Below are positions 17,701 to 55,159 of a stretch of DNA of 64,000 nucleotides, piece by piece. The notes beneath the pieces are model-generated. The model saw nothing but the letters and a program-made list of their open reading frames with translations. It did not search any database and had not been told where the DNA came from. How positions within the stretch are numbered: the first letter of the stretch is position 1; the number at the start of each line of letters is the position of its first letter. This DNA comes from Psammoneis japonica (taxonomy: Eukaryota). The stretch is taken from positions 186,001 through 250,000 of the forward strand of contig QPGO01000042.1 in the NCBI GenBank assembly GCA_008632985.1, read 5' to 3'. The translations under genes were made by a program, and so were the position numbers.

Positions 17701-17899
17701 GTTTGTGAAAAATCCCAATGCAGAATCTGAAGAAGAGAAAAAAAGACATCAAAACTGCAATTGGTCAACATGGTCATCATGAGCCACAACAACAACAACA
17801 AATAAAAATTCTGACAACTTGATCACATCAAGCAAAGTCTCATTGACCTGTCTCTTGTGCACTCTAACCTTCGCAACAGTCATTTGTGGTGCATGAATG

Positions 17900-22429: not shown

Positions 22430-22466
<37 letters not shown>

Positions 22467-23150
22467 CCCATTGTGGTTGTTGTTGCAATTGTTGTGACAG
22501 GGGCCACGACCTTGTTGGTTCTGGCTTCTGTGACCACCACAGCATCCACCACCATGTTGGCCATGACCACTGCAGTCTCCTTGAGAGTGACTTCTGCCTC
22601 AGCCTCCTCCACCATGGCCACCACCACAACCGCCACACAGCTCTGACGTCCACAACAATTGGGGTCATTCAGGTTGTCACAACACCAGCCCCAGGCATGC
22701 CTTCCTTGATGCCATGGGACCAACACACATCACTGGCCTTTGGCTTGCTCTTTCTGCTTCACTTGTCATGATTGACCTGCTTGTCACTGGAGTTTCTGCC
22801 ATTGCTGTCATCAGACTTGCATTTCTCATCATCCTGACCATTGACAAACACTTTCTCATTGCTTGTGCAGGTGTGAACATCCACCATGGAGTCTGCAACA
22901 AAATTCTTGCCCACATGAATGTGGGGCTGCTGCCATGCCAGCAGCAGAAAAGTGTGGAAAACTGCACTCTTCTGCTCCTGCTCTGTCAGCTCTGGAACAG
23001 CTCCAGGCAAATGGCTGGCACAATGGAAAAGAGTTTGAACAACTGCTGCCATGACAGCTGGGAATTGGGTGTGTGACAAGACAGAGTGTTGAACAGCATC
23101 AACAGGTTCTAGAATTGTGAGGTGTTGCACTGCTGGGACCACTGATTGAG
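17900..23150 (-). mobile_element. Decayed Ty3/Gypsy (GyDi-like) retrotransposon: gag-pol plus probable 3' LTR
   Basis: RNase H KLSAAQRNCSTMEKELLAVV...HTDHRNLTF. RT FVIPEKDGRV...LPVIQD...FFTKIDLTM. Gag H-x3-H-x-W-x2-C knuckle-like motif (~22670-22720). Polypurine tract GGAGGGCGGGAAGAG followed by TG at ~18514. Confidence 0.85.
22432..22466. repeat. (TTG)n microsatellite within the Gypsy gag region
   Basis: Directly visible TTG run. Confidence 0.9.
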
Positions 23151-23199
23151 CAACAGTTGTCTAATTGCCAACAACACATAAACTGCCTGTGTTTGTGAC

Positions 23200-25445: not shown

Positions 25446-25465
25446 TAGCAGCACAAGAGTCCACA

Positions 25466-26165
25466 TCCGATCTTTTCCGATCTTGAACGCATTTTTCCTA
25501 CAGTGCCTGATCGACGTAGGTCACACCACCTAACGGTCGAGCGTTGAATTTGTCTTGCTGTCCGATGCTTTCCGATGTTGAACGCATTTTTCCTACCTGA
25601 CCGACGTAGGTCACATATATTTAACGGTGGACCGTTGATTTTAGTCGTGGATCACACGAACTGTCGCCAATCCCTAAGTGATCTGACATCTTGCAGTCAT
25701 CTTGTTTGAAAGTATCCGATCTTTTCCGATCTTGAACGCATTTTTCCTACCTGATCGACGTAGGTCACACCACCTAACGGTCGAGCGTTGAATTTGTCTT
25801 GCTGTCCGATGCTTTCCGATGTTGAACGCATTTTTCCTACCTGACGGACGTAGGTCACATATATTTAACGGTGGACCGTTGATTTTAGTCGTGGATCACA
25901 CGAACCTTGCAGTCATCTTGTTTGAAAGTATCCGATCTTTTCCGATCTTGAACGCATTTTTCCTACCTGATCGACCTACCATAGGTCACACCACCTAACG
26001 GTCGAGCGTTGAATTTGTCTTGCTGTCCGATGTTTTCCGATGTTGAACGCATTTTTCCTACGTACCTGATCGACGTACTGTAGGTCGTACCGGTAGGTCA
26101 CACATACACACCTACCGGTAACGTTCGAGCGTTGAGGAGTACTCGTATCCGATCTTTTCCGATGC
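25466..26165. repeat. Tandem array of ~90-155 bp units with alternating A/B higher-order structure
   Basis: Core TCCGAT..TTTCCGAT.TTGAACGCATTTTTCCTACCTGA.CGACGTAGGTCACA starts at ~25466, 25561, 25715, 25805, 25931 and 26026, with a partial unit at 26148. Confidence 0.95.
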
Positions 26166-26209
26166 TGGTGAGCCCCGCACTTCAGTTGTGACTATGAATA
26201 GGGCAATGA

Positions 26210-27132
26210 ATGACTGAAGAAGATAAACAACAAGAATCATCATCGTCGTCGGCAACCACCACCACTATCCACACACCATCGACCTCAACCGTACGCGTCA
26301 AGACGCGCCGGGTCGTCTGCGCCATACCATGGGTCCACAGTTTCAATCCAATCGCATTCCCGGAAGAAGATTTGCGCGAACGTTTGCGTTTGGATGCATG
26401 TCAGCAGCAGAGTAGCAGAAGTATTACCCTTCGGGTGCGATTCTCCGTGCACAAGAAATTGTGTCATGGCTGCTGCAACGACAGCAGCAGCAACAACAGG
26501 ACGACGAGCGTAGTGCTAATACCACGGAAACCATCAAGTCGTCGGTGGCGGTCTGACGAGTGCACACGTTGCCATGTTGTTGGCATCATCATCACCTCAG
26601 TGAAATTAAAAAAATACGAAGTCCAATCGCTGCAACGTTCCAAATTACTCCAACGCGTCGCAAGTGTCTCGAGAAGTTTTGTAAACATTAGTCGTCCAAC
26701 CAGCGACTAGCATTTGTCAAGCAAGCTCACAAGGGTAGAAGTATCCCGCCCGAAATGGTGCAGACCTTGTACGACAAGTCATCCATTTCGATTTTGGATG
26801 AAACCAGTATCGAACAGGTGGACTGGTGTCCGACGGATGGTCAATTTCATGTCACATTTGAAACCAATCATCTGTATGGGGGATGTAGTAGTGTATGCAC
26901 CGCGCATGACGATGAACCGCCTTTGAGTGGTACCTTTCATCGGTTTATACTGCAGACCGGAGTCCAAAATACTCTTGACAAATATCCAGCATTGATGGCA
27001 CTCCAACAAGAGTTGCCCGTTGACGTAGCGGAAGGCTTGCCGGTATTGAACGACAACGACTTGTCGTGGTGTACAGCAAAATATGATAGGGACAAGGACA
27101 ATGATACTCGTGCGTGGCAACAAACTTTGTGA
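26210..27132 (+). CDS. Hypothetical protein or pseudogene in two ORFs (26210-26710, 26755-27132)
   Basis: ATG-initiated ORFs with normal TA/CG content, unlike the surrounding repeats. The join (intron or frameshift) is unresolved. Confidence 0.4.
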
Positions 27133-27999
27133 CAACGATGCTTTGTTTTGGGATCCCTTGCCGCCCATGCCCTGGATCCGATGCCCTCAACTTGTTGGTC
27201 ACACGTCATAGAGCCGTCCAAGTGGCACGAGCCCTTCGAAAAGATATGATAGAGTAAACGATTTGTGGATACTACTCGAACTCAATTCTGATTGATCGCT
27301 GACTTCAATTACGAGCTTTTCGTTGTAGTTTGCATGTTGCATAGCAGAATTTTGGCAACACCCTTTCATTTACTGAGGCAGTGATATTCCGAGTATCGAG
27401 ACGTATAAACATCGTTCGCCAGCTTCTTGGTCGATACCCTTACCATTTCCTTGGCAAAAGTATCACTAAGATTTGTGGAGGTTGTTGCGGTGCACTTCAG
27501 TCAAGACTGCCATTTTACATTGCTCATCTCCTGTGCCAGAGCCCCGGTTGATTGTTGTTTCCCGTGTCAGCTCTGTGGAGTCACTAAGGTCATTTAAGCT
27601 GCACCGCATCCCAAACTCAAATCATCTCCACCGTCGACGTATGTAGACCTGTTTCGCCTTGAGCATTGAAGCCCTTTGAGTTGTCAATGGTCTCGCAAGA
27701 CTGTGTCATGGACTGCTTCACATTGTTTGTGGCATCTTCCATGCTTGATGAATGCACTTGATGCTGTTGACTGCCAAATGCCAGGGCCATTGCCTGACAT
27801 GTTGAACGACATTTAACAATTCTCTCAACATGCACTGCACAATGGAATCTGTTGTCTCTTCACAAAATCATGAATGGATGTCTGAACCTTCATTCAAAAT
27901 TCAGTTGCTGCTGACGTGTGCAGTCCCTGGTTTTGACAGGTTCACTCCAGTTTTCTGCACAACGTCCCCTGCCAGATCATTCAATCTCATGTGCAATTT

Positions 28000-30900
28000 T
28001 GCAGCATGCATGTGCTGGCGTTGGCCAGCCTTTCATTTGGGGATCCCTTTCTTGCTCGAGTCACAAACATTCCTGATGAAGTTTTTATTTGTTGCAACAT
28101 TGTTCTTGACTGTGGCATCATTGCAGTGCTTTCCGACAAAATGCGTGGACATCAATGCCAAGCAATTTGTTGGACACCAGACAGTCCTTTCCTGGTGGTG
28201 CCACTTTGGAAATGCAGCAGGATTTGCAGCACTCTGCTGACAAGTTTCCTGAAGTCCTTGTTTCAGTCAGTGGTTTGTCCAGCTTGTTTTGCTGCAAAGA
28301 CTTTCAGAGTTCTTGCACTTCTCTCTGTTCAGAAGCCTCCCATCATGCTCTGTCAAGCACTTCTTCAGCACACAAGTTTTATTTTGTGCTTGTTTGATCT
28401 GCACTCTGGATTCCAGCATCTTGTTTGGGTTTCTTGCTTGCAATGACAGCAAGAGCAACATCTCAGCAACATCTTGGCAACAGCTTGCCTTTGCTCAGGG
28501 TCACATTCGCAGCACAGTTGCCAATCTCAGAGAACTGTGGCAAGAGGTGCAAGCATGGACAAGGCACAAAACAGAAACGTTTTTTTTAATCTGATGTCAA
28601 GGGGGCAAGAGGCAAGCACTTCTCGCAGCAGGAAAAAGAAGGCATGAAACAAAGTCGGCAAGTGTGCAACATGCAGCTGCAATCATTTTAAAATTTTCCT
28701 GCATTCTCTCGCGGTTTGAGGGACTTCAAAATTTTGTCATCAAATTTTTCAATTTGACTTGTGATGCTGTGTTGCAACTTTCCCCACACAGACACCAAAG
28801 GACCCCGATCCAATCGACCCCCACCCTTCCAGACAGTGTGCCAACCGACCATCCACAGACACTGCTGACATCATGCCCAGCTAGAAGATGACAAAAACCT
28901 GCCACCAGGTGGCCTGTTCCAATTCTACAGGCCGAATGTCACACGAAGTCCCACCTGGGATTGAAGCCCGTCCCACACAAATGTCGCGCGCAATGATGAC
29001 AGCCATGGCCTTGCCGTGGTTCATCACAGAATGCCAACACTTCCAAGAATGACAAAACACATTTGCATTTTTGATGTGATGATCAAATGAATCAATTTGT
29101 GAGCAAGATGAGAGATGCAGATCACGGGCTTCATTCATCTTGATTGCCCAGCGTCGCTTGCTCTCATTTCTGCCTCTTTCTTGACGCCTCACACATTTGT
29201 CACACTTGTTGAGGGCATTCACAGTGGCAATGTTGCACAACGACAAAGTTGATTGAAATGAGCAAAGCACATGTTGGCAGCCCTCAGTGTTGCACGTGGG
29301 CGCCGCAGTCTTGACAGCAACAATCAGATGATTGAACCCAGCGGCTTTCGATCTTGCATCGGATGGTGTTTGTTTTTTCTGGAAGTGCTTCCCTGGGACA
29401 CCCGAAGGCAGCCGATCCCTCCAATGTGCAAATGCAGCTGAATGGCCATTTTCCCCAATCGAGTCTGAATTGCAGTCAGCGTCAAAGCAGTTGTCACATG
29501 CTGAGTGTGGCTTTCCTGGGAATGTCTTCTTGGGTCCGGCATCATCGCCCACACTGCTGCAATCAACCATTTTGCCTGGTTGTTCCAAGATCACACAAAT
29601 TTCCGTCAGGCCCATGGCACCCCATCCATCTGTTCGTGGGTGCAATTTGTGTTGGTGAATGCAAGCCTGAGGTCGGATCCGGTGCACATCCGACATGATC
29701 ACTGTCTGACTGCCCTTGGTGATGCCGGGCTTTCCAACCATGCAACTGGTGATCCCGCGCCACCAGCTTCACCATGGCCCACATGGCCCCAGGTGGTTTC
29801 ATCACCACATTGATCCATTTCTGCGTGCAGCATCATTGCGTTGAAATTGTGCACTGTTGTCATGCAAAGCATGTCACACTTGTGTGCCGGGTTGTGCCCG
29901 GCTTCACCTCTTCTGGGGGATGTCATGTTGTTGCATGGCTTCAGCACTTGCTTCATTTGAAGCCAACGTGAGCAGCAAATTGACAAGGATGTGCTCAAGT
30001 TGCAGTTGGATCCATCAGCCATCCACCTGTGGTGAATGGCTCCATCACTGCCACCCTTGACGCCGTCTCGAACAATCACTCCATCAAATCTGACAAGCTC
30101 CTGGACATTCACAAGTTTAAAATTGTGTCCATGCAATGAGCACAACTTCAACTCTGCCATGGCATGCAAGTTGGAAAATGTTTCTGCTTTGCTGTGGAAC
30201 AACTTTCTGGGGTCTGAGTTGACACCCGACCATGCAGTGTCACACATTGGGAGAATCAATTGACAGAAAAACAAAGCATCCCGATTTTTCATCTGCCCAG
30301 TGTTCATTCCCAACAATCGCAATGCACCCGCATCCAAAGATCCTTTCCTCAGTGCTGGAAATGGGTTGTCTTTTGATGCGCCCGATCTGTTGGGCATTGA
30401 CAGCATCAAATCCTTCTCAGCAACATCATGACTGGACATTGACCTCTCCCATCCCTGACAAAAGAACTTCCATCCATGGCAAATTCTCTTCCCTTCCAAA
30501 TTCTCTGGCACCAGCGCAGCACCAGTTGGCAAGCCATGCTGAATGCACTTCTTCTCCCCTCTTGCTTCAAACTGAGGGCGGAAAGCATGTCCACTCCACA
30601 CTCCTGGATTGTCCACATCAGCAAATGGTGGCTCCCCCTTGTTTGCTTTTATCTCAGATGGCTGCCACCCTTCAGGAGCACCCAGAATGTTCAACTGCAC
30701 CAACGGGTCATGCTTGCCAAGGTGCAGTGGCAAGGCAGTGTGGTTGTTGTCAGCCACAGTCTGCTCATTGTTCATCACTGTCTTGGTCTGCAACACGCGA
30801 TCTCAACCTTTCCAAGCAGGCATCAGCACAAGCTCCATCAATGTCATTGACATTCTCATGCTCTTCATTGCCATCACCACCATCTCCCATCTCTGTCTCA

Positions 30901-31100
30901 TCCGCAAGGATGTGCTCGGGGTCCACTGGTTGGTCCTCCGCAGTTGCGGGACCAAAGTCTGTGGCCATCATGTGCAGTGGGCCCAGCCCTGGTTGTTGTG
31001 CCGCCATTCCACCAAACACTTCATTGGCACTTGCAGAAGTGGCCATCTTTGTTGCAACGTTGACACTCCGATTCACTGTGCATGTTGTTTTGACAACAAT
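28000..31100 (-). mobile_element. Decayed piggyBac-like DDD transposase
   Basis: Catalytic-region remnants DQCGDETTWGH, HSACDNCF and LHLSSCSQIDSFDHHIKN...HSWKCWH resemble piggyBac D-E / DNYF / Y..ID..D...KYW motifs. Limits approximate. Confidence 0.75.
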
Positions 31101-31120
31101 GGGGTGGCTGCGGTTGCTTG

Positions 31121-31121
<1 letters not shown>

Positions 31122-31181
<60 letters not shown>

Positions 31182-31464
31182 NNNNNNNNNNNNNNNNNNN
31201 NNNNNNNNNNNNNNNNNNNNNNNNNNNNNNNNNNNNNNNNNNNNNNNNNNNNNNNNNNNNNNNNNNNNNNNNNNNNNNNNNNNNNNNNNNNNNNNNNNNN
31301 NNNNNNNNNNNNNNNNNNNNNNNNNNNNNNNNNNNNNNNNNNNNNNNNNNNNNNNNNNNNNNNNNNNNNNNNNNNNNNNNNNNNNNNNNNNNNNNNNNNN
31401 NNNNNNNNNNNNNNNNNNNNNNNNNNNNNNNNNNNNNNNNNNNNNNNNNNNTGTGTGTGTGTGT
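31122..31464. repeat. (TG)n microsatellite interrupted by a 270-N assembly gap (31182-31451)
   Basis: TG runs on both sides of the N stretch. Confidence 0.95.
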
Positions 31465-33069
31465 TTTCATTCATCGGCTTTCAAGGCAGACTCGGGTGAC
31501 ATTTCTGCGGTGATGCATCACTCAAAAAAACCCAGGTTTCAGTCCCCAAACACCCCGGGTTTCAAGCCCACTCCAATGACGACCACAAAATGCCAATGCA
31601 ACTCCAACCATCAGACATGTCATTTCAAGGGCAAACAGTGACAGACATGGGGTGAAAACCCGCGGACTGCCAATCAATGGTCATTTGATCTTTCCATTCA
31701 ACGGCCAACAGGTTCCAGTCCTGGGTGGGAAATTTGGCCCGCAGAATTCTACATGCAAGCTCTGCAGCATGAGAATTTAATTAATGTGTGTTTTCATCTT
31801 CAACATCAAATGCAACGGCCAAGTTCACAGCACATTCATGCCTGTCCACACTCAAAGTTTTTGGTGATCCACCTGCCCTGCGCCATTCCCAAGACATTTG
31901 CAAATGGCACAGAAGAAAAAAATGTTAAAAGTTGTTGAATGGATCACTCAACAATTGCACTACAAAATGACACAAAATTCCACCAAAGTCACGTAGAAAT
32001 GCACACGCGCGACATGCGGCGCTATCCAAAAAACTGTCGATGTCACAGGTCAGCAGAACGAGGTCCCACCCAGAGCTGGAACTCGTCGGCCAACAGCTGG
32101 TGAAAAACCTGGGACTGAATCCCAGGTTTTTTGGGACACCCTGACCAAATGACACAACATCCACTTTTTCATTTATGACAGTTCCTCATTGCTGCACTGT
32201 CTTTCCTGCGCCGATCAAATTTGCGGAGGGCAATGTGAAAACATGAACACAAGCAAGTCATCGCAACAAAAAACTCTGCAGTGTCACCATGTGTGTTTTG
32301 CTTCATGTGATGACGTGGCGTGGCATCTGATCAAGTGTTGAGTCGTGGCCATTAAAAATGATGCTGTCATCCGCCCACAGGCTCCTCCGTTGCAGCAGTC
32401 GTTCCACTGCACCGTCACACCCAAAATTCCGCCCAAGCAGTGTTTTTCTGCTGGAAAGTGGAGTTCTCACATGTGGAAATGTTGACACTCAGTCAGTGTC
32501 TTCTAAAAATTTCTGCCGCACATCCACTGTCACTCCACTCAGGCAGAAGGCACAGCAGAATTTTCGGAGCCAAAAATTCCACCCTGCACGCCGCTTTCGC
32601 GCGATCTAAACCATCTGTCCTTGGTGAGGTCGGGTGCGACGGTATGAACAAAAAAATGCTGAAGTTCCACTCGTCTCAATGCGGCACCTCAACCATGAGC
32701 ATCGCCGAGTGCAACCCCAGCAAATGTGCCAATGCCAACCACATACATTTTGGCATGGAAAGCAGCACTCACAGGTGTCCTGAGTACATTCGTGCTGCTT
32801 GTGGTGAAAACAGACGGATGACTTGCACCACTTTCAACTTTGACAAGCTCTGAAGCACCTGTTTGAGATCATTGTTGTGAGTTCTATGTTTGAACAGTGC
32901 CAAACAATTGCACCAGACAAAGAATTGTCAGCATCTCATCGAACTTCTGCCAGCTTGACAAGAAAACAAGCTGCTCCCCAGCGCTGAATGCATTGCCAAA
33001 GGTTGCAACCATTGACACCTCTAGATTGTTCCACATCCTCAGCTTGAGATGCATTTTTCAATGACTGTT

Positions 33070-33840
33070 TGGTCCGCAATGACCTTGGTGCTTTTGCTGC
33101 AATGGGTGCTGAGTGGACCTGTGAGCGACAACGAGACCGGAGAAACAGTGAGGAGCAAACTCCGCCACACTTAAAAATCATCAAACGCCCAAAACATGAG
33201 ATGTGCACAACAAACAAACATTGCCACCACATTTTTGACTCTGTCATCAGCAAATTTTGTTGTCCTCACCTTTGCAGCCCAAGCCGAGCTTGATCAGGAA
33301 TGCAACTGTGTCTGACGCGGTGGTGCTGATTGTGCCCTCTCTCACAGCAAAAGTCGCCAAACATCCAAGAGGTGAGAAGTGCCAAGAAATCCAATGCACG
33401 CATCATTTTTTTAAACAATCACAGTGGTCCACAACTGTGTTCATGCCGTCGCTGCAATGGGTGCCAGGCAGACCTGTGAGCGATCACAAAACAAGAGCAA
33501 CAGTGAGAGAAAAACTGTGCAACAGAAAAAAACATCAAACGCCCAAAAGACGGGCTTTGCAATGAATGCAAACACAACCATGAGATTTTTAAAGTTCACT
33601 TTAGCAAGTGTTGGCATCTCACCTTTGTCCTCAAATCACCGAGTGGAAATGTCAACACCACTGTTGCCGACGCGGTGGTGCCGCGTGTTTCCTCTCTTGC
33701 AGCAAAAGTCACCAAACACCCAAAAGGCAAGGGCAAGCAAAAAATCCAACAAAAGCATCATTTTTTTCACAGTCGCATTAGTCAATGTTGGCGTTCACAC
33801 CTTTGCTGTAATGGGTGCCGAGTGGAACTGCGGGCATTCA
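33070..33840. repeat. Degenerate ~355 bp tandem repeat (about 2.2 units)
   Basis: GCTG(C/T)AATGGGTGC recurs at ~33096, 33451 and 33805. GACGCGGTGGTGC...CAGCAAAAGTC.CCAAACA recurs at ~33314 and 33669. Confidence 0.75.
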
Positions 33841-34599
33841 AAGGCCATGGTCCAGGTGACGGCGCGGTGTTTTTTTGGCGTCGCTCTTTGCTCTAGCTTG
33901 GAGTTTTTTTTCTGCTTCAACTCCTCGCGTGGGTTTGCGTAGGTTGATTGCTAGCACGCAGCTTCTGTGCTGATGGCCACGGCTTGGTCTTCTTCCCCGT
34001 AGGATGATCAATGCTCTCTACAGAGTGGAACTGAAGGGTGGATTTTTGCGGATGTGTCCCACTGTTTCATGAGCCATGTGCACTGGCACAAAAATCACGT
34101 GGAATTTTTACGTAGAAAAAATCATAAAAATCAGGGTTTGGGCCGATTTTTTTCTCGTGCTTCTACCGTGCTTCTCGGCTCCACCGACGCCTCAAGGAAT
34201 CGTTTTCCCCTGAAACCATTGACACTTTACATGATGACTTTTGCACAAGTGACACGATTCTGTGCATGAACACTTCAAAGTTCCATTTTCAGAAATTCGA
34301 TCAACACTTCACTGCGGTCCCACTACGGCGAACATTTTCCAACGCAAAGTGTCAACCATCATGACTGAAATCGATTCCTTGAGGTCGTGGCCTATTTTTC
34401 GCAAAGCACGTGGGAAAAGCACACGAACAAGATGTTCTACGTGAATTTTCTACGTGAGTTTTGCACCAGAAATCGGCCCAAACCCATTTTTCGGGACTCA
34501 TGACCCCTGCACATGGCTGATGTTGCACTCCAGCAGTAGAGAGTAGAATGAATCATCAACCATGGAGTCACTTGGATCGAGCAGGGCACGTGCAGCTGA

Positions 34600-37500
34600 G
34601 GCGGACGACACATGTTGAACGACACTGTGCATTTTAACAATGGTGGCTGACATTTGCGTTTTTGATTTTGGAGCAGTTTCAAAATGATGGGCATGAGGTG
34701 GCCGGGACTGAAAACTGAAACCATGTCAAACGTTTCTTTTTTTCGAAAGTTTGAAAACCTCTCAACGATGTCGATCGCCAGTGCAAGAACAACAAAAACT
34801 TTGACACAACTGAGAAAGCATCGCGGCGGGCAAGAAGATTGGAGCAAAGTTCTCTGTTGGAAAGAGCGCGATTGCCTCGCGTGTGCACCACTGCAAGAAA
34901 CGACTGACCGAAGGAAACTCGAAACGAAACGCGGCCAATCGTCGAAAGGCAGCGCAAAGGAAGCAGGACAGAGAAAAAGCTCAAAAGGAGAAGGAGACCA
35001 ACCTCCAGGAGAGGAAGCTCCAGCTCGTTTCTCAGTCATTGGCGACTCAAAAGGACCGTGGACCTGCCTGTGCGGAGCAAGCAGCGGCCTTTAAGAATGA
35101 TGCAATGACTCAGAGCCTTTTAGCAAAAGCCATTCTCACTGATGTTGCTTTCAACTCTCACCCCAGCACGGTTGCGGGCGCTTCAGTGTGAGAGCTGTCT
35201 GACGGGGAGATCGTTGAAGAAGAAGACGACAAGACCGAAGACGTTGCGAACGACAACGATGCGGTGCTGGAGCCAGCAATTCCTCGCAAGCCCGAGTTGC
35301 CACCCACGACGATGCGCACGGAGCGATTTGAGCCGCGATCTCTCCAGGACATTCTGATGGATGCTGTTCACCATCCAGAAAACCTGGCAGGAGTGGCGCT
35401 CACCGATTGCAGTGTGAGAGACATTTTCTCTTGTTTTGGGGTCGGGTGCCAGCATGTGAGGACTGGGCTGATGGAGTGCGCGGGTGTGGCATTTGACCAA
35501 GCCATTTTATGCCTCTTGCGCAATGGCACTGTGCAATGTAATCCAAACTGTGATGGACAAAACAGCGCGTTGGCTGTCACCTTCAAGGACCAGCAGGGTG
35601 TGATCCACTGGTTCCCGTTCGACATTCTTCATGGCTCAGCATCCATTCGTACATGCTTCGCACACTCTCCCTTGCGATGTGCGCAAAACAGTCAGCGATG
35701 CCAGTTTGTGCTCAAGGGCATCCACTGGTTGGGCAAAGCGCTGCACCTGAAATTCGATGAGGTGATTGCTCACGTCGTGTCGGCAATTTCCAGCATCGCG
35801 CTTCACAAGCTGTGCTGCTGTGCTTCGTCGCCCAGCATCAAGGACGTTATAGTTTGTCGTGTCATTGCTCAAATCCAGCCAACAGAAAATGAATTTGCAA
35901 GCTTGAGCAACATTCCGCATGCCAGTGCCATGGGCGACTGCGAATCCTGGATTGTTCGATTCAGTGAGATCCATTTTGTCCACCGAAAGCTTGGCCTTTT
36001 GCACTTCTTTGCGGAGGAGCGGGCCAAACTGTCAGTGCAAAAAAATCTGAACCCCCATCCAGATTGGATTGAGAAACATGTGGCCCATGAGTTGTGCAGG
36101 ATCTTCTCTAAGCCAAGCCGCATTTAAATGCAATTCGACTGAGTGGTGCACTAAATTGTGAAACAGATCGCTCATTGTCCATTTTAAATTTTGCCGCAAG
36201 AAGTCTCTGCACGCTTCCACTGGATGTAGATTTGCTTTGAAACAGTGTCGACACCTCCAGCCTTGGTGGGAGCAAGACAGGGCCAATCAATCACTGTGGG
36301 CTCAAATGATGTGTGGAAACCATGTTCGACGCAATCGCTCCACAGGGGCTTGCATCTTGTGAGTGGTGTGCTTTGACAGCAATTGTGAAGGTGCGCATTC
36401 TCGTGCAGCAGTTTCTGACTTGTTGATGTCATCTTTGACCACTTGTGAAGGCGGCGCCATTGGGAAGGATGAAACTGCTGAGACGCTGTGGGGCGACAGT
36501 CCAAGTGAGATTGCCTGCTACGAACGGGACCCAGAGGGACGAACAAAGATGATGCTGCTTTTAGAATTGCTCACCAATGCGGTGATTTGCATTTCTCGAT
36601 GGGTCTTGGCGATTGCAGTGCGTTCCAGCCAATCAGTCTTCTGTTCTTGCATGAACTTGCGCTTTTGTTCCTTCAATTCGATTTCCCGCTTTGCAGGAGT
36701 GCCGCCTTTTGCACTCATGCCTTGATTAAAACTCTCAACATCTTCCTCCAAGTGGCCCTCCTCTGGTTCGGTGGCGCGTCAATGAGCTCAAGTAGAGCTT
36801 CCAAAAGAATGCCGCACTGCGTGCCTGGTCAGCTTGAGTGGGTTGCTCATGCAGTCAAATGCGATTTCGGCAGAGCGTCTCTTTCCTTTCACAGAGCCCG
36901 CATGCCCTCTGGAGTCGATTTAGGAACACCTTTGTCATGTTTTTCTCATGCATTGTTTCTTTGTTGACTTGAGGTTCTTCAACGCTTCTCCATCTTCTCT
37001 GTGCCACACGTCGGCGGCAGCTTCGGCGACAAATCCCATGCCATGCCAACCAATTCCGTGTTCGTCACCGGGGCGTTGCACAAATCCTGGTCGACATCAC
37101 TTCTGTCAATCAAGTCATTTGAATGAGTCCACAGTGGCAGATGGCACATGGCAGCAGCGTTTCTGTCAATGTCAGCTCAAGCTCCGGAGACTTGCTCGAA
37201 TCCGAGAAAGAGCATTGCGTTTCCATCAGTCAATTCTTCAAATGGCCACATCCAAAGAAAGAAAATGTTGTGCTGGTCCAACAAATGGCTGCACCCAAAG
37301 AAAGAAAATGTTGCGTCAGTTTGAAAAGATGTTTTTGCACTTGCACTGTGCTGCTTGGTGGCGTCACCAGAAAGTGCAGCATTGGCATGTCCAAAAGTGG
37401 CCCAGAAAGGCCAGCCAACCCCACTCACAGGAAAATCTTGAAAACACATTGTTGCTCAGCTTTCACCATCATTGGCTTTGGCTTTCAGCCCATTGTCTCA

Positions 37501-37700
37501 CTTCTTGGGACTGCCGCAGTGCAGACAAAGAAGGCCCACTTTGGTGGAGAAATTCATTGAAAACTGGGGAGTGCAGTGCAAGACTGACAGCAATGTCAGT
37601 GCAGCATGCTCCTCCAAAGCTTGAAAAACCTTCAAGGTTGGAAAGTGCCATTGCAAGACAGAGCAGGCTGGCTTCCAGCATTTGAAAATGCAAAGCCAAG
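34600..37700. mobile_element. Unclassified decayed element(s), probably DNA-transposon derived
   Basis: Broken ORFs on both strands, strong TA depletion and repeated subterminal-like motifs just upstream. No diagnostic catalytic motif recognised. Confidence 0.35.
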
Positions 37701-37790
37701 CAGCACTGAAGGAAAAAGGGATGTTTTGCACTCATTGACAATCCCAGGTTGTCAGGTGTGTGGCAATGTTGCTCCTGCATCATGCAATGT

Positions 37791-40700
37791 CAAGTGGGAA
37801 AAAAATGCACACATTCACAAGTGTGTTGTTGCGTGTGTCAATCACACCACAATCATGGATGTGCATGAAGGACAGATCAATCACACAGACTTGGTTGGAC
37901 ATCTAAAATTGCAAATGTGATTGACCAAAAATGTTGACAAATGAGACATCAATGTTGGTTGCATTCAGACATTCTGTTGTCATGATTAGATTCTCTGAAT
38001 CGCCTTTGGTTTGCAGAAGCAGCGCAAGTGCATTGGGCTTTTGCGAGCTCTTTCAGAGAAATCCAAAGTTGCAGCACAAAATCCAATCTCACAATTTTGC
38101 TCCATTCATGACTTGATTTGCTTTTGAATTTGCACTCAGCATGGTGCATTGTGTGCACAAACCACAAAATGCAAAAACACAAAAACAAAGCTTTCACCTC
38201 ATGCAGCTGATGCCAAGCCTTCCATCAAGCAGGGGAGAATTGTTCCAGCACCTCTGGATTTAATCTGTGAGCCAAAGTCGCTCAAACTGATGAGTCAGTG
38301 CCTCAATGTGAAGCAATGTTTTTTCCCAAAGACAAGAAGAGTTGCACTCACACAATGATTGCAGAGTGTCACAACAAACAAAGAGTTCTCAAGTGCATCA
38401 AATTTCTCAAGACCTGTCGTCAAATCTTCGTTGGTCAGAACATGATCTGGAAGCAGGCCAGCAGGTGTTCTGTTTGATGCACATGTTGTTGCAGAGAGAT
38501 GCCCTTTGAGTTTTGAGGACAAGGCTGCACAAATGTTGAATCCAAAAAAGACAAAAAAGCCTTCAAAAAATGCCTGAGTTCTTTCTCAAGCCAAGTTGTC
38601 CTAAGGAACTCACTTTGGAGTTGGAAGCAGCATCTGTGAAGTGATCTCAAAAAGCCAAAGACCATGCACAGATCCACAAAATTGCCACTTGGGCTCACTG
38701 GGTGAACAAAGACTTCAAGCATTGTCCTTGCTTTGAGTCGAAGCAGAGTCTGGATGAAGATGAGCTCAAGGACATCATCCTGCAACTTTGTGCCTTGTCA
38801 ATGAAGGAACCAGTCATCCCCACAAGATTTTGAAATCTTGGGCCAAAACTTTGACAAGTTGGTTGATTTTTTGGAATGTCTGGAGGTTGCTGAAGACACA
38901 CTTGACCATGCTTGTGTCAAGTCTGATCCTGGCAGCAAGTCTGGGTCGAAACCAAAAAGTGGGCCCCGCTGTGATTCCAAAAATGGTGACCAATCTAGTG
39001 CCAAGTGTTCTGATTCTAAAAAGTGGGGCAGTTGTTGCAGCAAAAAAAGCCACTCATGACACGGGGTTCAATGCTGGGTTGTTAAAAGACTGGCAAAAAA
39101 ACACTGAGAAAACTTTGAACAAAACCCCAAATGGCAATGTCAAAATTGCACCAATCACATGTGGTCTCATTGCGACACTAAAAATGCCTCTCAAAAAGAA
39201 GAGTGGAGTGTCATGATCACCCAGGATGTCAACAAAACTCCAAAACCAAGTTTCTTGCTGACAAATGACTAAAAGTGCAAGGGCAAAATTCTGATGCTGA
39301 TGTGCTCTCAGCAAAGAAAACGTCAGTTTCAGCAAATGACATGCAGTGATTCTGAAGAGATGCTGGCTCCTGTTGAGGAGTCTTGCACATTGTTGAACAT
39401 CAGAAAGCCTGTGGAAAAAGGCCAAAGCATTTCACACTGGTCCAGTGGTCATTGCTCACATGAACAATGCCTCTTTGAGAAAAGAGAAAAATGAGACTCT
39501 GCACAATCTCTGCACAATCTTCTTGCTTCATGTGGAAATTGAGTGCTTGGAAATCTGCTGCCAAAACTTGAGAAACAAAGGGTGTGCTCTTTGCAGCTGA
39601 CAGTCAATTCAATGTGCAGCTCTTGTCACCTGAATTTGACAAGCACAAGTTGATTGAGAAGATGGTGCATGTGCAAACAGCACCCCTTCTTCTTCATGTC
39701 ATTGTGACGCAAATGTGGGATGCAACCTGGCAAGCAGTCTTGGAATCACACGCAACTTCACATGTGATGAAGTTGAACAGGAAGATGCATCATCCTGCAA
39801 CTTTGTGCCTTGTCAATGAAGGAACCAGTCATCCCCACAAGATTTTGAAATCTTGGGCCAAAACTTTGACAAGTTGGTTGATTTTTTGGAATGTCTGGAG
39901 GTTGCTGAAGACACACTTGACCATGCTTGTGTCAAGTCTGATCCTGGCAGCAAGTCTGGGTTGAAACCAAAAAGTGGGCCCCGCTGTGATTCCAAAAATG
40001 GTGACCAATCTAGTGCCAAGTGTTCTGATTCTAAAAAGTGGGGCAGTTGTTGCAGCAAAAAAAGCCACTCATGACACAGGGTTCAATGCTGGGTTGTTGA
40101 AAGACTGGCAAAAAAACACTGAGAAAACTTTGAACAAAACCCCAAATGGCAATGTTCAAATTGCACCAATCACATGTGGTCTCATTGCGACACTAAAAAT
40201 GCCTCTCAAAAAGAAGAATGGAGTGTCATGATCACCCAGGATGTCAACAAAACTCCAAAACCAAGTTTCTTGCTGACAAATGACTAAAAGCACAAGGGCA
40301 AAATTCTGATGCTGATGTGCTCTCAGCAAAGAAAATGTCAGTTTCAGCAAATGACATGCAAAGATTCTAAAGAGATGCTGGCTCCTGTTGAGGAGTCTTG
40401 CACATTGTTGGACATCAGAAAGCCTGGAAAAAGGCCAAAGCATTTCACACTGGTCCAGTGGTCATTGCTCACATGAATGATGCCTCTTTGGGAAAAGAGA
40501 AAAATGAGACTCTGCACAATCTTCTTGCTTCACGTAGAAATTGAGTGCTCAGAAATCTGCTGCCAAAACTTGGGAAACAAAGGGTGGGCTCTTTGCAGCT
40601 GACAGTCAATTCAATTTGCAGCTCTTGTCACCTGAATTTGCACAAGTTGATTGAGAAGATGGTGCATGTGCAAACAGCACCCCTTCTTCTTCATGTCATT

Positions 40701-42884
40701 GTGACGCAAATGTGGGATGCAACCTGGCAAGCAGTCTTGGAATCACACGCAACTTCACATGTGATGAAGTTGAACAGGAAGATGCTGCTGTGACAATGAA
40801 GAATGTTGATGAGTTCTTTGATGCTGTGCAGATGTCTTTGAGCTGGTTGCCAATCACATTGAAGAGGTTCACACCATCAACAGCTTCAATGACACAGGTT
40901 CAGCAGGATCCTTGGTGCCAACTGTCATGCTGCTGACCTCAATGATGTGACTGCTGCAGCAACACATCTCACCCCAGGAGAACAAAAGCAACTGAACCTT
41001 CTTTTAAAAAGACAAAAAATCTCTTTGATGGTTCCTTGTGCATGTGGAAAGGAAAACTGGTCAATCTTGCATTGAAGTCGGGCACAACTCTGCATCATGC
41101 AAAACAGTTTCCTGCACCACACAAGCCTCTGGTCAACTGCTTGAAAAGAAGTGAAAAGACTCTGCAAGAGAGGAGTCTCAAGAAAAACAAACCACTCTGC
41201 ATGGGCAGCTCTGGCCTTCATTGGCTGAACAGGAGACTGGCATGCTGCACTCCACACCCTTTGCCCAATGTCAAGGATGTGCTGCAGAAACCAGATGGTT
41301 TCATGCACGCAACCTTGCTTGATTTGAACATGGGATGCTCCTGCCATGTTTTGAATTGATGCCGCACGCACACCATTTGTGCTTGATTGTGATGCCATGG
41401 GGCAAACATGAGTGCCACAGACTCCCCATTAGAATGCAGATCCCTGGTTGTTTTTCAAGAAAACACAAACAAACTCATGGCAGGTTTGGAGTTTGTCAAA
41501 ACCTGTGTTGACAATGTGCTGTGCCTGAACAAAAGGTGACTTCAAAGATCATCTCTAAAAACTTGAGGAGACATTCACATGACTTGAATGAGCCAGTCTA
41601 AAGGCCAATGCCAAGAAGTCCTTTTTTGTGCCAAGCCTGATGCAGGCTGTCTGGACTTTCATGTCACCCAGAATGGCATTGCACCAATCCCCCAAGAAAG
41701 TGCAGGAATTTGAAGCAATTGCAGCTCCCAAAATGCACAAAGAACTGCAATGTTTTGTTGGTGTGACAAATTGTTGCTGAGACACGTGGCCTTTGTGATC
41801 TCGTGCACTTTCTCCTCTGGCAAAACTCACCTCAACTGAGGTTGAGTGGCAATGGACAAGCACAGAACAAAAAGCTTTAGAAATGTGAAGTGAGCCACAT
41901 CAAAGGATGTGTTGTTGTCATGCCCAAATTTTAACACACCCTTTGAGATGTGGGCCGATGCAAGCAATTCTCAATTGGAGGCAGTCATGTCACACAACAA
42001 CTGGCCTGTTGCATTCTGCACCTGCAAGCTGAGTGGAGTGCAGATGCAATGCACCACAATGGAAAAAGAACTTCTGCCCACTGTCACAGAAACACGCAAG
42101 AAGTGCTGCAACATCATGCTGTTTGGCCAACAGACAAAAATGTTTGCAGATCACAAATGCCCCACTCATGAGAATTTTGCTGTGGACAGAGTCATGCATT
42201 GGCATCTGACAGTTGAAGAGTGCATTCCTGAAACAGCTCATTTCAAGGGCAAGGCCAATGCCATTGCAAGTGTAATCAGCTGATTTGCAGTGAAAAATGC
42301 TGAACCTGTGAAAAAATGCTCAAGCAAAGAATGCTTGATGCACTCCACACACCTGCAGGGCAGGAGAACAGACATTGCTCAAGAAAGACTCTCAAAGATT
42401 GGAGCAGCCCTGTGCTGAGCCTTGGGCAATGACAATGGTGCACACCAATGGCACAGCACAGATCAAATGCTGTGATGTCTTTGATGCAGTCAACATCCAT
42501 CATCAAATGACGCCATTTGATGAGCAACCCCAACATGCAACCAGGGAGGCAAATGCAGCATGCACAAGCAACAAGTGGAAAGAAATGCACATGTTCACAA
42601 TTGCACGTCATTGCACATGTCAATTGCACCACAATTGTGGAAGCCTGTGAAGGACAGGTTGATCACACAGACTTGATTGGATGCATGAAATTGCAAACAT
42701 GATTGACCAAACATGTTGACAAATGAGATGTCAATGTTGATTGCATCCAGACAATCTGTTGGCTTTCAGTCTGCATGAGCAGTGCAAATGATTTGGGTCT
42801 TTGAGAACTCTTTTGGAGAAACCCAAAATCACAGCACAAACTGATCTCACAATTTTGCACTTTTTGTGATTTGCTCCACTCATG
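37791..42884 (+). mobile_element. Decayed Ty3/Gypsy element bounded by a diverged LTR pair (~37791-38111 and ~42572-42884); integrase apparently deleted
   Basis: RT PLPNVKDVLQKPDGFMHATLLDLNMG and TCVDNVL (from YIDD). RNase H PFEMWADASN..L.AVMS...VAFCTCKL...CTTMEKELL. The flanking direct repeats share e.g. GAAGGACAG...ATCACACAGACTTG.TTGGA and TGATTGACCAAA.ATGTTGACAAATGAGA. Confidence 0.85.
38773..40785. repeat. Near-identical ~1.0 kb direct tandem duplication (38773-39787 / 39788-40785)
   Basis: CATCATCCTGCAACTTTGTGCC starts both copies (offset 1015). Both end GTTGAACAGGAAGATG(C). Duplicated ORF translations appear in the track. Confidence 0.97.
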
Positions 42885-44799
42885 TTTGCACTTGTTCTTC
42901 AAGCATGGTGCACTCCCACAAGTGGGTGTGCAGCAAAACCTGTCAAAGCCAACAGTGATGCTCAGCAGTGCTTGTCAAGAAACCAGCTGCAGCTGCAAAG
43001 AAGAGGACAACACCCCCCTTCCCCCCCACATCTCTTCTTGTTGATCCTGCAACCCTGCCAGTGTCTGTTGTGCACAAGGGCAACATTGCTTGTCTCAAGT
43101 TTGCCTGCATGCTAAAGCTCACTCCACAAACCACAATCACACTGGTGTTCTGCATCACTGTTTTTGTGCCAAAGTGGAGAATTTGCACCACTGGGCAACC
43201 AGCTGACCAGCTCATGCAAAGGGGCTTCCTGTGGTGAAGCTGCTCAGAATGGCCAGAAGGGCTCTCTCATGCATGGGCTGGCAAGCCTCTTTCTTGGTTG
43301 AGAGAGAGCCATGACTTGCTCATCCAGTTTTTTCTTTCAAAACTGGGTCATTGTCTTTTGCATTGTCATCACAGAACTCATTGTGCCATGACCAAACCCT
43401 GTTTTGAAATTTGAACCTCATTTTTGTTCATTTGAAACACAATGATCTCAACAGCTCTTGCAGTTGTCAGACCTCTGTCATTGACAATGCTCATCTTTTG
43501 CTCTCAGTGCTGTTGCCATTGTCCAGCCACTGCTTGAGGTGCAGACTCCAGCCCATTGCAAGAGGGAGCAGCATTGTTGTTGCCAACACATGAGGTGTGC
43601 TCATCTGCAGAAAATCTCTTGGCATTGTCTGGGGAATGTGATGCTGGAGCTGTGCTCTTTTGTGCCCACAACACTGTGCAGCATGCCATGGTCCATGGAG
43701 TTGCCTCTTCCCACACCTCAGCAGCTGACACAATGCTGCTGCTTTTGCTCTGTTTTGGCCATTGCCCTGCTGCTCCAAAATGTCAACAACCCTGTTGTTT
43801 TTCTGCAAGTGTTCCCATCATCAATGCTGCACCAGCATCCTTGCCCTGTGCATCTGCCCCTTTGCGATGGCTGCAACAACAAAGATGCCACACATGGTCA
43901 ACACTGGCCAAACATTCTCTGCAATGTGCTCATCATTCCCTGACCTGGACTCACCCCAAGGCAAGTGGACTTCCATCTCACCTGCCAAGTCTGTCACTGC
44001 AAGAAGTTCAAGAAGGTGAAATCTCCCTCCAACCAATCGGAAAGCACCTTTTCTGTGCACACCTTCTTTGCTCATTCTCTCAAAGAACAAAGCAACAACA
44101 GCCATGCAGACAGATTGAGAGCTCCCACTTCTGTCAACCCCTCTGGCCCAGCCATCCAGCTTTTGAGACAGGGGAATGAGGCTTCACACCCCCCAACCCA
44201 CCCAGTTTCCCAGCACACAAGAGGAATCAAGACCAGGGACATGACAACTTGAATGTTGTTGTGCATCACACAACACAACCACAATGGAGGTCTTTTGTCC
44301 CTGCTGCACATGCCTCAAAGAGTGGCCACATTCTCCTCAACACTTTCTCAGTTTTCAGCTGCCACAAGGAAGAGCGGAGCTCATTGACAAGGTCAAAAGA
44401 TGCGCATCCGATGCTGACGCACAAGGATCATCTCTCTGCTATTTTTTGCCAAAGACTGCCCAAAGATAGCCATTCATACCCTGTAGGAATGCTCGAGGAG
44501 GAGTCTCTACTCACTGTTGTCCTGTCTCTCATGATAAGATGAAAAGAAATCATCTCCAGCAATGGTAAGATTGGTGAAGTGTTGTTTTTCTGGGCACGCC
44601 ACACTAATGTTGATTCTATTCGATTTCGCACCCTCGCATTTAACTAACAATTTATCACATTACGGCCCGCCGAAAAGGAAAGACTAGACTAAAGAATCAT
44701 CTTGTTGTATATATAGACAAATACTAACTACAAATTCTTACCATATAAAATTGGCACAGGTCGCCTAAGATAGGTGCTCTCTAATGCAAAGAACTGTCT

Positions 44800-52483: not shown

Positions 52484-54575
52484 CTAGATGCTTATGTTGG
52501 CTACTTCCATGAGCGCGCCCCACAACCCTTCGCCAGACGACACATAATCATTATCAATGATAGCAACAAGGAAGTACGAGTCACGAATGTTCTCGATAAG
52601 TTCATAGCTGTCACTATCGATCTCGTATAGATTGAGCCACATTGTTGTCCACAGTGAAAATGCTTCCTCCACCCACACGAGAAAGGTGCTAGGATCAAAA
52701 ATTGTAGGCTGGAGGATCTCCCTATTTGGAAATACACCCCAGGTCAACGCAGTTACACCGCCTTCCTCTACTCCCACTCGCAATTCTTGCCCTGAATTGT
52801 TCACTGCGTACAAATTCATTGCCGGGTGATTGGAGACCATCGCGACCAATTTGTTAGCGTTCTCAGGACTGACAAAGCATTCGCAGTATGCCTTTTGGTA
52901 TACGTAGCCTCCCGGACCTCCCCAACCAAAGGTTTTGTGCGAGCTTGGAACACCATTTACCGGTGGCTGGCTGTTGATGGACAAAAACCCTTTCCGGTTT
53001 AACTCCGCGAGCTGGCGTTGGATGAGAAATGATTCTGGTTGGAGCGGTGTCTCGCACCAAGCTGCGAAAATACACATGGCGGCAAGATTCATAAAGTGAG
53101 ACAATCAAAAAAGAACATGATAAAACCGTAACAATCTGAAACTTACGAATATGTGGGACGTCGCCCTCCACGTACTGGGCGAAAACTTCGTATACATCTC
53201 GTTCTTTCTTTGGGTTGTGTCCAAGCATAGCACGGCGGTCGTCGTCGCTACCAAGAGTAAAGGAGTAGAAATGGGAAACTTCCGACAGCTCTCCAAATGC
53301 CGGCGACGTTGAATCACCCCATCTGCCATTAGGAAACTCGTCCCAATCTTCTGTCCGCATAACATATGACTTTGGTCGGTTCGCCCAATTTATAGGTCGT
53401 ACTTCTTCCTTTGACCGGGACTCCATGGTCGACGGTCTCCAAGGAAATGGTCGCTCCGACGATGACCGAACACGAACTGTACCCGTCACAGTAGGCGATG
53501 ATGAAAGCTTGTCAATGCTATCTTGCAGTTTAGATTCGGCTGCAGTTGTGGACGTTGAAGATTCGATCGCGGGAGAGGGAGTGATCAAATCTACGGCTCC
53601 TACATCCATCAGTATCCTTGTGACACTTCGTTCCAGGTTCAAAGTGTAGAAGTGAACACCGTCTACGCCACCATCCTCGGGATCCGCAGACAGGATTGTC
53701 CGGCACATGTCTGCTGCAATTTCACAGCCAATGTCTTTGACTGCCTCGTCATCGTCTTTCACAGGCTCCAAACGCTTCATCACTGCATCAGGAACCGATA
53801 TTCCGCAATACGTAGTCATTCGGACAAAACTAGAGAAGCTTTGGATAGGCATGATACCAGGTAAAATCGGACAGTCGATTCCATATTGTCTGCATTGCTT
53901 GACATAGTTCAGGAACACCTGAGCATCGTAGAAGAACTGTGTGATAATGAAGTCGGCCCCTGCGTCCATTTTTTCCTTTAGATGTTTCATTTCTTCTTCG
54001 ACACTGATTGACGACGGATGTCCCTCCGGATGTCCAGCAACAGCTATTCCAAAGTAGTCTCCATGAAGCTGTCGAATAAGTTTTACCAAATCAATTGCAC
54101 GATTACATTCTCCGCCGCTCGTGTCGTTTCGATTCCACGAGCGTTTCCCCCGGGGCGGGTCACCTCGCAGTGCGAGTATGTTGTGAACTCCACAAGACTT
54201 TGCCTGGCGTAGAGCATTTGCGATTTGTTCACGAGTCATACCCGTGCAAGTCAAATGCATCAATACGTCTACCCCGCAATACCTCTGGGCATGCGAAGCC
54301 ACCGCCAGCGTCCTTGCAGATGTAGATCCAGCGGAGCCCCACGTTATATCAATGAACATAGGTTCAAGTCGACGGGCCATGCGATCTATTCTTGTTAACA
54401 AATTGTCCAGACCGGCTTCTGTTTTTGGAGGGAAAAATTCAAACGAGTAGTACCAACCTGGCTTTAACTCCGATCCAAAACGTGAATCACCAGCATCCGC
54501 AGATAACGATTGCAGGCTACGATGATTCTCATTCTTCTTCCTACGTTTTTGAATTTTCTCGATGATGCGCGTCAT
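52484..54575 (-). CDS. MTHFR: Methylenetetrahydrofolate reductase, eukaryotic type with regulatory domain (intron 53062-53146)
   Basis: YSFEFFPPKT, HLTCT, NILALRGDPP, GADFIITQFFYD, HFYTLNLE, WDEFPNGRWGDSTSPAFG, INSQPPVNG, GWGGPGGYVYQKAY. Confidence 0.97.
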
Positions 54576-55159
54576 GGTTACAACAATATGTTCATCAGAG
54601 GAGGAAGCGTCGCATCTAAACTCTCGTAGTATAAATAGCAACAACAACTGTGGGCTTTGGCTCGAGGTGAATGAGAGCCGGTGTGTGGTGTGCCCGGTGT
54701 CATCGTGTGGTCGTTCGCGAAGTGAGTTGAAGCATGGTCTGACGTCATGACATCTCAGATATTTGCATCTTAAAATATCTGATGAAAATTAATGATGCAA
54801 CTGGCCGTTACTTGTATGTTTATCTTCAAAGACTTAGGAATGAAAATGAAAAGAGATATAAATGATGTATTCAGTCACATAATTTGTCCAACTTGCTCCA
54901 ACGACAAAAATTCAAACAAGAGAGGCAACACATCAAGGAGCTTTTGCCATTGCCGGAACTTTCAAAACTCAAAACACTCAAAACCACACAAAAGAAAGCT
55001 TCAAAGCTTGTTCAAAGACAACGAACAGGACCGGTCAAAGCCCGAATTTGTGGTTCATAGGCTGTTTCGACTTAAGGTACCGAGCCACTGCAACACCAAG
55101 TTAAATTGCGTCTGTTGTTCAGTGAGAAGTGAGGCACGACAAAGCATACCCTGTCAGCA

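Follow-up and report, generated by a model that had tools for sequence, protein, structure and literature searches.

In a 64,000-nucleotide stretch of the diatom Psammoneis japonica (GenBank assembly GCA_008632985.1, contig QPGO01000042.1, positions 186,001 to 250,000 of the forward strand; here called the window and numbered from its first letter), a dead Ty3/gypsy long terminal repeat (LTR) retrotransposon at 37776-42912 has lost nearly all of its TA and CG dinucleotides to TG and CA. The conversion acted on chromosomal DNA, on both strands, and was limited to transposable element (TE) blocks. It preferred certain sequence contexts and continued after a 1-kb segment inside the element had been duplicated in tandem. 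We consider it likely that TA and CG were converted to TG and CA within the chromosome, that the segment was then duplicated, and that conversion went on independently in both copies. The pattern indicates what appears to be a diatom instance of the recently described TpA-targeted hypermutation of selfish DNA.

Within the element, observed/expected (O/E) ratios were 0.06 for TA, 0.12 for CG, 2.07 for TG and 1.68 for CA, a depletion of 8- to 17-fold for TA and CG; flanking genes gave 0.59-0.62, 1.02-1.03, 1.07-1.13 and 1.09-1.11, respectively. The element lies in the most depleted block of the window (37401-44420; TA O/E 0.04, CG 0.10). Across all depleted blocks, TA O/E was 0.04-0.10, TG and CA O/E were 1.6-2.1, and CG O/E was 0.10-0.59 versus 1.02-1.03 in the flanks, while the GC content of depleted sequence was unchanged at about 0.46. 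Block borders were sharp, within tens of bp: at the right-hand border (around 44400-44440) a single TA at 43113 precedes the return of dense TA from 44440. CG density falls about 260-400 bp upstream of the start of the element.

The identity of the element follows from its architecture. A 5' LTR (37776-38148, plus strand) with TG...CA ends was recognized from its alignment to 42554-42912 and its position relative to pol. The latter segment is the 3' LTR, also plus strand with TG...CA ends, and is directly preceded by a purine-rich, polypurine-tract-like tract at 42543-42553 (plus strand). Copies of the 4-bp sequence CTCC flank the element on the left (37772-37775) and right (42913-42916), both on the plus strand. 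Together the LTR pair, the matching flanks, the purine tract and the end of pol identify two LTRs with a target-site duplication. Between them, on the plus strand, lie a relic of the protease C-terminus, reverse transcriptase and RNase H (40550-42280), with a Pfam RT_RNaseH match at 41894-42280 (E = 2.4e-9), and an integrase C-terminal remnant (42312-42524) found by tblastn. The pol relic had 1953 homologues in a representative protein library; a search for homologues of the RNase H open reading frame (ORF) at longer lengths gave no match. An intact 1004-amino-acid homologue (P0122) aligned through residues 2-577 to 40550-42280 and through residues 933-1004 to 42312-42524. The gap between these alignments therefore corresponds to a deleted integrase core of about 355 amino acids, and pol ends at 42524. 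The order protease, reverse transcriptase, RNase H, integrase, together with the TG...CA LTRs and target-site duplication, is that of Ty3/gypsy elements, and the loss of the integrase core marks this copy as dead.

A strong witness to the process is the LTR pair. The two LTRs of one insertion are identical at integration, as a consequence of reverse transcription. Here, local and global alignment gave 384 columns with 272 matches and 76 substitutions, so that the LTRs differ at 76 of 348 aligned bases. Thirty-two of these columns form 16 doubles in which TG in one LTR stands opposite CA in the other, where independent transitions would give 2.2 (P = 2e-9). Such doubles are the outcome expected when each LTR resolved an ancestral CG or TA by itself and the two changes fell on opposite strands. 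If the 16 are doubled, so that sites resolved alike in both LTRs are counted too, and 4 half-resolved sites are added, the 348 bp would have held about 36 CG and TA sites at integration. The resulting density of about 103 per kb is close to the roughly 100 per kb of the normal flanks, so that the composition of the element was ordinary on arrival and its conversion took place in the chromosome.

Protein comparison gave the same direction. When the relic was compared with 40 intact homologues, none of 16 conserved Tyr residues was kept (7 Cys, 3 His, 2 Trp, 3 Phe and 1 Ser) and only 1 of 14 conserved Arg residues (otherwise 4 Cys, 4 His, 1 Gln, 2 Lys, 1 Ala and 1 Asp), whereas other conserved residues were often retained (Leu 19/35, Pro 11/17, Lys 6/9, Thr 6/8). 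Conserved Tyr had thus become Cys or His in 10 of 16 cases, and conserved Arg had become Cys, His or Gln in 9 of 14. Changes of TAY to TGY or CAY and of CGN to TGN or CAN are just what the conversion predicts, and TG and CA products are both seen on one strand. The single reading frame at 40970-42280 contains 10 TGA stops and no Tyr.

These observations bear on the proposal that the element itself avoided TA and CG, or that its RNA or cDNA was edited by ADAR- or APOBEC-like enzymes before integration. RNA viruses suppress UpA and CpG, with an excess of UpG and CpA, and retroelements pass through RNA; Knisbacher and Levanon reportedly described APOBEC/ADAR-type editing of retroelements before integration in 2016. 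Deaminase-type clusters of transitions in LTR elements are common to that process and to this one. Yet editing of that kind favours one strand and is found alike in both LTRs, whereas here both strands were hit and the LTRs differ, having diverged by exactly these changes from a normal CG and TA density. TG and CA, and Cys and His, appear as products on one strand, which together with the LTR divergence rules out both intrinsic avoidance and one-strand editing before integration. Catalytic and conserved Tyr and Arg residues were moreover destroyed and 10 in-frame TGA stops introduced, and we regard this explanation as barely credible. Three further candidates were rejected. GC-biased gene conversion runs opposite to CG becoming TG or CA, and the change is dinucleotide-specific. 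An artefact of sequencing chemistry cannot yield the LTR doubles and the pattern against protein outgroups. UV or alkylation damage gives no reason for dinucleotide specificity or for borders confined to TEs.

A preliminary description of this DNA had reported a 1-kb tandem duplication at 38773-40785, with copies that differ at TA and CG sites as a record of mutation in progress. Global alignment confirmed the duplication. Copy A (38773-39787, 1015 bp, plus strand), from the gag-protease region, is followed directly by copy B (39788-40784, 997 bp, plus strand), and the next base, 40785, again matches the start of the unit. In the alignment there were 974 matches and 23 substitution columns (19 transitions and 4 transversions). 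Its three internal indels (2, 11 and 5 bp) fall within 39410-39642 of copy A and account for 18 gap columns; the terminal base 40785 makes a nineteenth. Directly before copy A, an imperfect stretch of about 20 bp (38753-38772, plus strand) resembles the end of the unit (39766-39787), so that slippage or unequal exchange between these repeats is the probable origin of the duplication. Copy A carries its own 11-bp micro-duplication (39497-39518). In copy B, a deletion of 5 bp disrupts a PEFDKHK motif that A retains. At the end of copy B, protease motifs (TW.TKGG, PEF..H and an IIGRD-like motif) are recognizable against homologues.

A tandem pair in a scaffolded draft, with a run of N at 31182-31451 in the same window, might instead be an assembly artefact: two haplotypes, or a collapsed or expanded repeat, set in tandem. 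We examined read depth using Logan contigs from one public run, which covered 0.82 of the sampled words of the stretch. Aligned to 37500-42500, the contigs reproduced the flanks exactly at a depth of 68-77. Parts common to both copies (38773-39140 and 39615-39788) had a depth of 125-127, a ratio of 1.73 to the flanks, and a piece specific to copy A had a depth of 61. Alleles would predict ratios of 1 and 0.5. Contigs also end exactly k-1 (30) bases past the start of the unit (38802) and the same distance short of its exit (40756), as expected because joining the unit's end to its start would branch the assembly graph at those points, and the assembly has no gap at the junction. Two circumstances count on the other side: the run may be the assembly's own data, and none of the contigs listed bridges the junction at 39787/39788. 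No RNA run containing the stretch was among the public runs listed. An artefact seems very improbable to us, and the possibility that the copies are uncollapsed haplotypes, which the preliminary description had named as a refutation of its own reading, is contradicted by the depth.

Differences between the copies give a smaller sample of the same process. By dinucleotide state, the copies share 4 TA, 4 CG, 108 TG and 97 CA sites, and differ at 3 TA/TG, 3 CG/TG, 1 CG/CA and 3 TG/CA sites. All eight site pairs cited in the preliminary description were correct in the alignment; each had been given by the first base of its dinucleotide or 10-mer, the changed bases being 38947, 39063, 39084, 39321, 39354, 39276-7, 39465-6, 39531 and 39534. 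A third TG/CA pair, at 39548-9 versus 40550-1, had been missed. Transitions inside a pyrimidine-purine (YpR) step made up 13 of the 23 substitution columns, against 8.7 expected (P = 0.042), and the three TG/CA doubles compare with 0.077 expected (0 of 20000 simulations; Poisson P = 7e-5). It is difficult to produce such doubles without a transient CG or TA intermediate, and they are the firm evidence that conversion was still active after the duplication, as had been proposed. At 40550-1, the codon in the pol frame is TGG in copy A but CAG in copy B; the ancestor was CGG, because TAG would be a stop.

Several points weigh against reading the copies in this way. Single transitions taken alone showed no significant preference, with 7 of 11 in YpR steps at an exposure of 0.459 (P = 0.19). 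Eight of the 18 events fall outside the predicted classes (39141-2, 39203, 39346-7, 39396, 39478, 39571, 39585 and 39614), and two of the five adjacent doubles (39141-2 and 39346-7) are not TG/CA exchanges, showing that other multi-base events occur. Polarity was not obtained for any of the seven single-site differences; were the direction reversed, they would be ordinary transitions from TG or CA to CG or TA. Lastly, in copy B positions 40535-7 read TAG in one frame and CGT AGA in another, a frameshift lying upstream, between a DTG-like motif and the TW..KGG motif. The CGT AGA reading is plausibly ancestral, yet the TAG would be derived if the downstream pol frame extends there.

The first two of these points also speak for the view that the A/B differences are ordinary neutral substitutions, which look class-specific only since TG and CA make up nearly half of the sequence, with no special process at work once the segment had been duplicated. 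The enrichment over all substitution columns and the three doubles stand against it, and the same kind of double dominates the LTR pair; we therefore consider neutrality unlikely. What the preliminary description claimed thus holds in part. Differences of the predicted classes are enriched among columns and doubles and not significantly among single transitions, and the direction from TA and CG to TG and CA is borne out for the element as a whole by the LTR pair and the loss of Tyr and Arg, while the seven single sites remain without polarity. Its remark that other substitutions and small indels are present was accurate (8 out-of-class events and 3 indels). The duplication thus gives a limited but authentic glimpse of the late phase of the process, to which the LTR pair testifies more strongly.

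Changes outside the predicted classes could be polarized more readily. Against protein outgroups, the TGA at 39570-2 in copy A derives from Trp, the G to T change at 39585 in copy A is derived, and so is the 5-bp deletion in copy B; from the tandem structure and its absence in B, we infer that the 11-bp micro-duplication in A is derived too. With derived changes in each, both copies have decayed independently since the duplication. At 39396, a site outside the classes, copy B shares its G with other contigs of the family. At the variant sites of copy B, the only other letters among those listed were copy A's own.

The copies also allow the timing of conversion to be gauged. Their states imply that the unit carried about 18-21 CG and TA sites when it was copied: the 8 that both copies keep, 7 converted in one copy only, 3 seen as opposite products in the two, and about 3 more whose resolution left no visible difference. 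An ordinary kb has about 100 such sites, which places roughly four fifths of the conversion before the copying. By a clock of out-of-class changes (10 of 997 columns between the copies, 40 of 348 between the LTRs), the duplication has about 9% of the age of the integration. At a constant rate about 5.8 resolutions would then be expected in the two copies, against at least 13 (P = 0.007, rising to 0.06 should the true age be a third greater).

This excess, and the abundance of the family (458 contigs at 80% identity or more), could suggest that conversion is triggered by duplication, as in fungal repeat-induced point mutation (RIP), the 1-kb duplication having re-exposed an already decayed element. 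The counts are small, however, and the clock crude. In the alga Bigelowiella natans, discussed below, the main target of a comparable process is described as single-copy and its activity as episodic, which would also give uneven rates. A tandem repeat of about 250 bp at 25465-26086 is undepleted, and the depleted block at 27.6-37.4 kb has no detectable repeat partner in the window. We think a duplication trigger unlikely; the excess resolutions could weakly reflect either bursts of the kind seen in B. natans or re-targeting of duplicated DNA. A bolder version, with a similarly low probability in our judgement, would be a duplication-sensitive, deaminase-type defence of diatoms that erases the two self-complementary YpR dinucleotides from transposons, TpA by adenine deamination and CpG by cytosine deamination, and is re-triggered by duplication, with residual sites lost 2-3 times faster than the earlier average of the element. 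If true, stramenopiles would possess an analogue of RIP whose base bias is reversed, and one system might deaminate both A and C.

The preferred reading, in-chromosome conversion that went on after duplication, also draws on the neighbours of TA sites. Relative to normal sequence, TA survival was 1.4% in RTAY, 7.0% in RTAR, 9.9% in YTAY and 38% in YTAR (R, purine; Y, pyrimidine), so that RTAY is lost fastest and YTAR slowest. The pattern fits two independent events, one per strand, each about 4.4-fold faster with favourable neighbours. In the most depleted block, a purine follows all 23 residual TA. The fates of Tyr codons were less clear. In the relics of the window, codons preceded by Y became Cys 11 times and His 2 times, and those preceded by R became Cys 4 times and His 4 times; in two metagenome loci described below the counts were 2 Cys and 5 His after Y, and 6 Cys and 1 His after R. 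Neither contrast is significant, and the two sets conflict over which neighbour of TA matters.

The rest of the window shows how far the process extends. The window is diatom nuclear DNA: an ORF of 641 amino acids for MTHFR (52863-54788, minus strand) had best matches of up to 74% identity, and all named matches were diatoms (Seminavis, Nitzschia, Cylindrotheca, Thalassiosira and others). The undepleted flanks carry, besides MTHFR, genes with DnaJ and eIF-5/eIF-2B-type domains and an MFS gene. A first depleted block of TE relics (14890-25440; O/E for TA 0.06, CG 0.19, TG 1.84 and CA 1.85) contains two relics on the minus strand: a second gypsy pol, with surviving integrase homology (18605-21925), and a weak copia RVT_2 (24572-25039). 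No LTR pair was found for either within the window. The block at 27650-37400 is depleted of TA and largely keeps CG (O/E for TA 0.10, CG 0.59, TG 1.64 and CA 1.66), and the two losses are therefore separable. This block has many long ORFs and contained no recognizable TE protein and no Pfam match; another class of TE, or an integrated virus as in B. natans, would be candidate sources.

Two further features lie among these blocks. Between the first two is an island of normal composition (25441-27649; TA O/E 0.65, CG 1.17), which houses the 250-bp tandem repeat mentioned above, whose copies are 88% identical. A perfect (TG)30 microsatellite starts at 31122 and abuts the sole assembly gap (270 N, 31182-31451).

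The element belongs to a large family. The 458 contigs that align to 37500-42500 comprise 23 at 99% identity or more, 29 at 95-99%, 114 at 90-95% and 292 below 90%. Some loose contig ends carry normal CG and some TA, and less decayed family members probably exist in the source genome.

Independent instances came from two sources, and the phenomenon is not peculiar to this assembly. Among the 150 best library hits to the relic, 11 were Tyr-free ORFs with an excess of Cys and His. These ORFs (P0131, P0136, P0137, P0150, P0152, P0168, P0169, P0176, P0193, P0238 and P0260) are gypsy pol relics of up to 699 amino acids with less than 0.5% Tyr, rich in Cys and His. A metagenome scan queried with one such ORF returned 50 loci, two of which (L024 and L025) hold a gypsy relic with TA O/E down to 0.03 and CG O/E of about 0.5. 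Their residual TA followed the same context ranking as the window, with 1 RTAY and 32 YTAR among 68. In L025, the depleted sequence gives way abruptly to normal DNA at about 9500, and the relic sits between normal diatom genes, with PMSR and RUS1-like genes on the right-hand side; its flanking gene is closest to raphid pennate diatoms. The two metagenome records are separate and hold the same element (L024:2-4533 versus L025:4622-9153) at 98.8% identity without gaps. Their 55 differences include 8 of TA type, 15 of CG type and 2 TG/CA doubles, and 27 of 37 transition differences fall in YpR steps (P = 0.0012). Neither locus yielded an LTR pair or DNA similarity to the element of the window. 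TA-free relics form long spurious ORFs because they lack TAA and TAG stops. Dead elements are thus called as genes, and Tyr-free 'proteins' already stand in public protein libraries.

Taken together, the history probably ran as follows. A Ty3/gypsy element of ordinary dinucleotide content integrated at 37776-42912. A process that worked after integration, on both strands of chromosomal DNA and within transposon-derived blocks only, then turned nearly all TpA into TpG or CpA through A:T to G:C transitions; in the LTR element, nearly all CpG likewise became TpG or CpA. With about four fifths of the sites gone, the 1015-bp gag-protease segment was copied in tandem, and both copies were converted further and independently, 7 sites resolving in one copy and 3 in both to opposite products. 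Ordinary decay ran alongside, through the Trp to stop and G to T changes, the 11-bp micro-duplication in A and the 5-bp deletion in B. For the TpA part, we give somewhat less than an even chance to a nuclear enzyme that deaminates adenine (A to inosine to G), as proposed for B. natans; thymine modification and biased repair are alternatives. For the CpG part, the simplest candidate is deamination of 5-methylcytosine in methylated transposons.

Diatom TEs have been described as CpG-methylated (Hoguin et al. 2023, PMC9998398; Maumus et al. 2009, PMC2806351). The change from CG to TG or CA, its confinement to TE blocks and its variation between blocks all resemble 5-methylcytosine deamination. 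That process covers only the CG part, however. The loss of TA is stronger and more uniform, and it is present where CG is largely kept, in the 27.6-37.4 kb block and in L024 and L025.

Fungal RIP offers a second likeness, as a defence-like, in-situ, transition-only, dinucleotide-specific decay of repeats with sharp borders that destroys coding capacity. RIP changes C:G to T:A, mostly at CpA, and so creates TpA, whereas here TpA is destroyed, mainly by A:T to G:C changes. With TpA depleted up to about 25-fold relative to what base composition predicts, and GC content unchanged, the direction is opposite, and we rejected membership of the same family.

The closest known system is TpA hypermutation of viral DNA integrated into the genome of the chlorarachniophyte B. 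natans, observed in mutation-accumulation lines (Mettrop et al., bioRxiv 10.64898/2026.01.13.699255, April 2026). According to the main text of that preprint, the mutation rate of two viral insertions is about 1000-fold that of the remaining genome, and 230 of 231 mutations there were A to G or T to C, all at TpA and giving TpG or CpA. Only some lines were affected, in an episodic manner. Reverse-transcriptase and DDE domains were over-represented in coding clusters poor in TpA and rich in CpA and TpG. The agent was proposed, not proven, to be an ADAT2-like adenine deaminase. A nucleocytoplasmic large DNA virus (NCLDV) insert showed modest long-term depletion (Rho TpA 0.45). Targeted TpA hypermutation had been demonstrated only in this one preprint. 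Our literature search returned no report of TA or TA plus CG hypermutation of diatom transposons, including in the available text of PMC9998398, PMC2806351 and 10.1101/2025.10.24.684338.

Diatoms are a major group of phytoplankton, and the same signature is indicated there with saturating loss of TA. The locus offers two natural clocks, the LTR pair and the tandem duplication, which prove action in situ and give relative rates and a context rule that any candidate enzyme must explain. As described in the preprint, B. natans shares with the diatom locus the A:T to G:C change at TpA, on either strand of chromosomal DNA and in foreign DNA only. Its mutations were measured de novo, whereas those of the diatom locus are read from fixed differences near saturation (O/E 0.04-0.10), an excess integrated over time. 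The preprint's main text makes no mention of diatoms, CpG or flanking context, and its silence on CpG counts against the preferred reading. Unlike B. natans, the host here is a stramenopile and the identifiable targets are LTR retrotransposons, and the diatom locus adds to the known pattern a CpG to TpG or CpA component in some blocks and a four-nucleotide preference for RTAY over YTAR.

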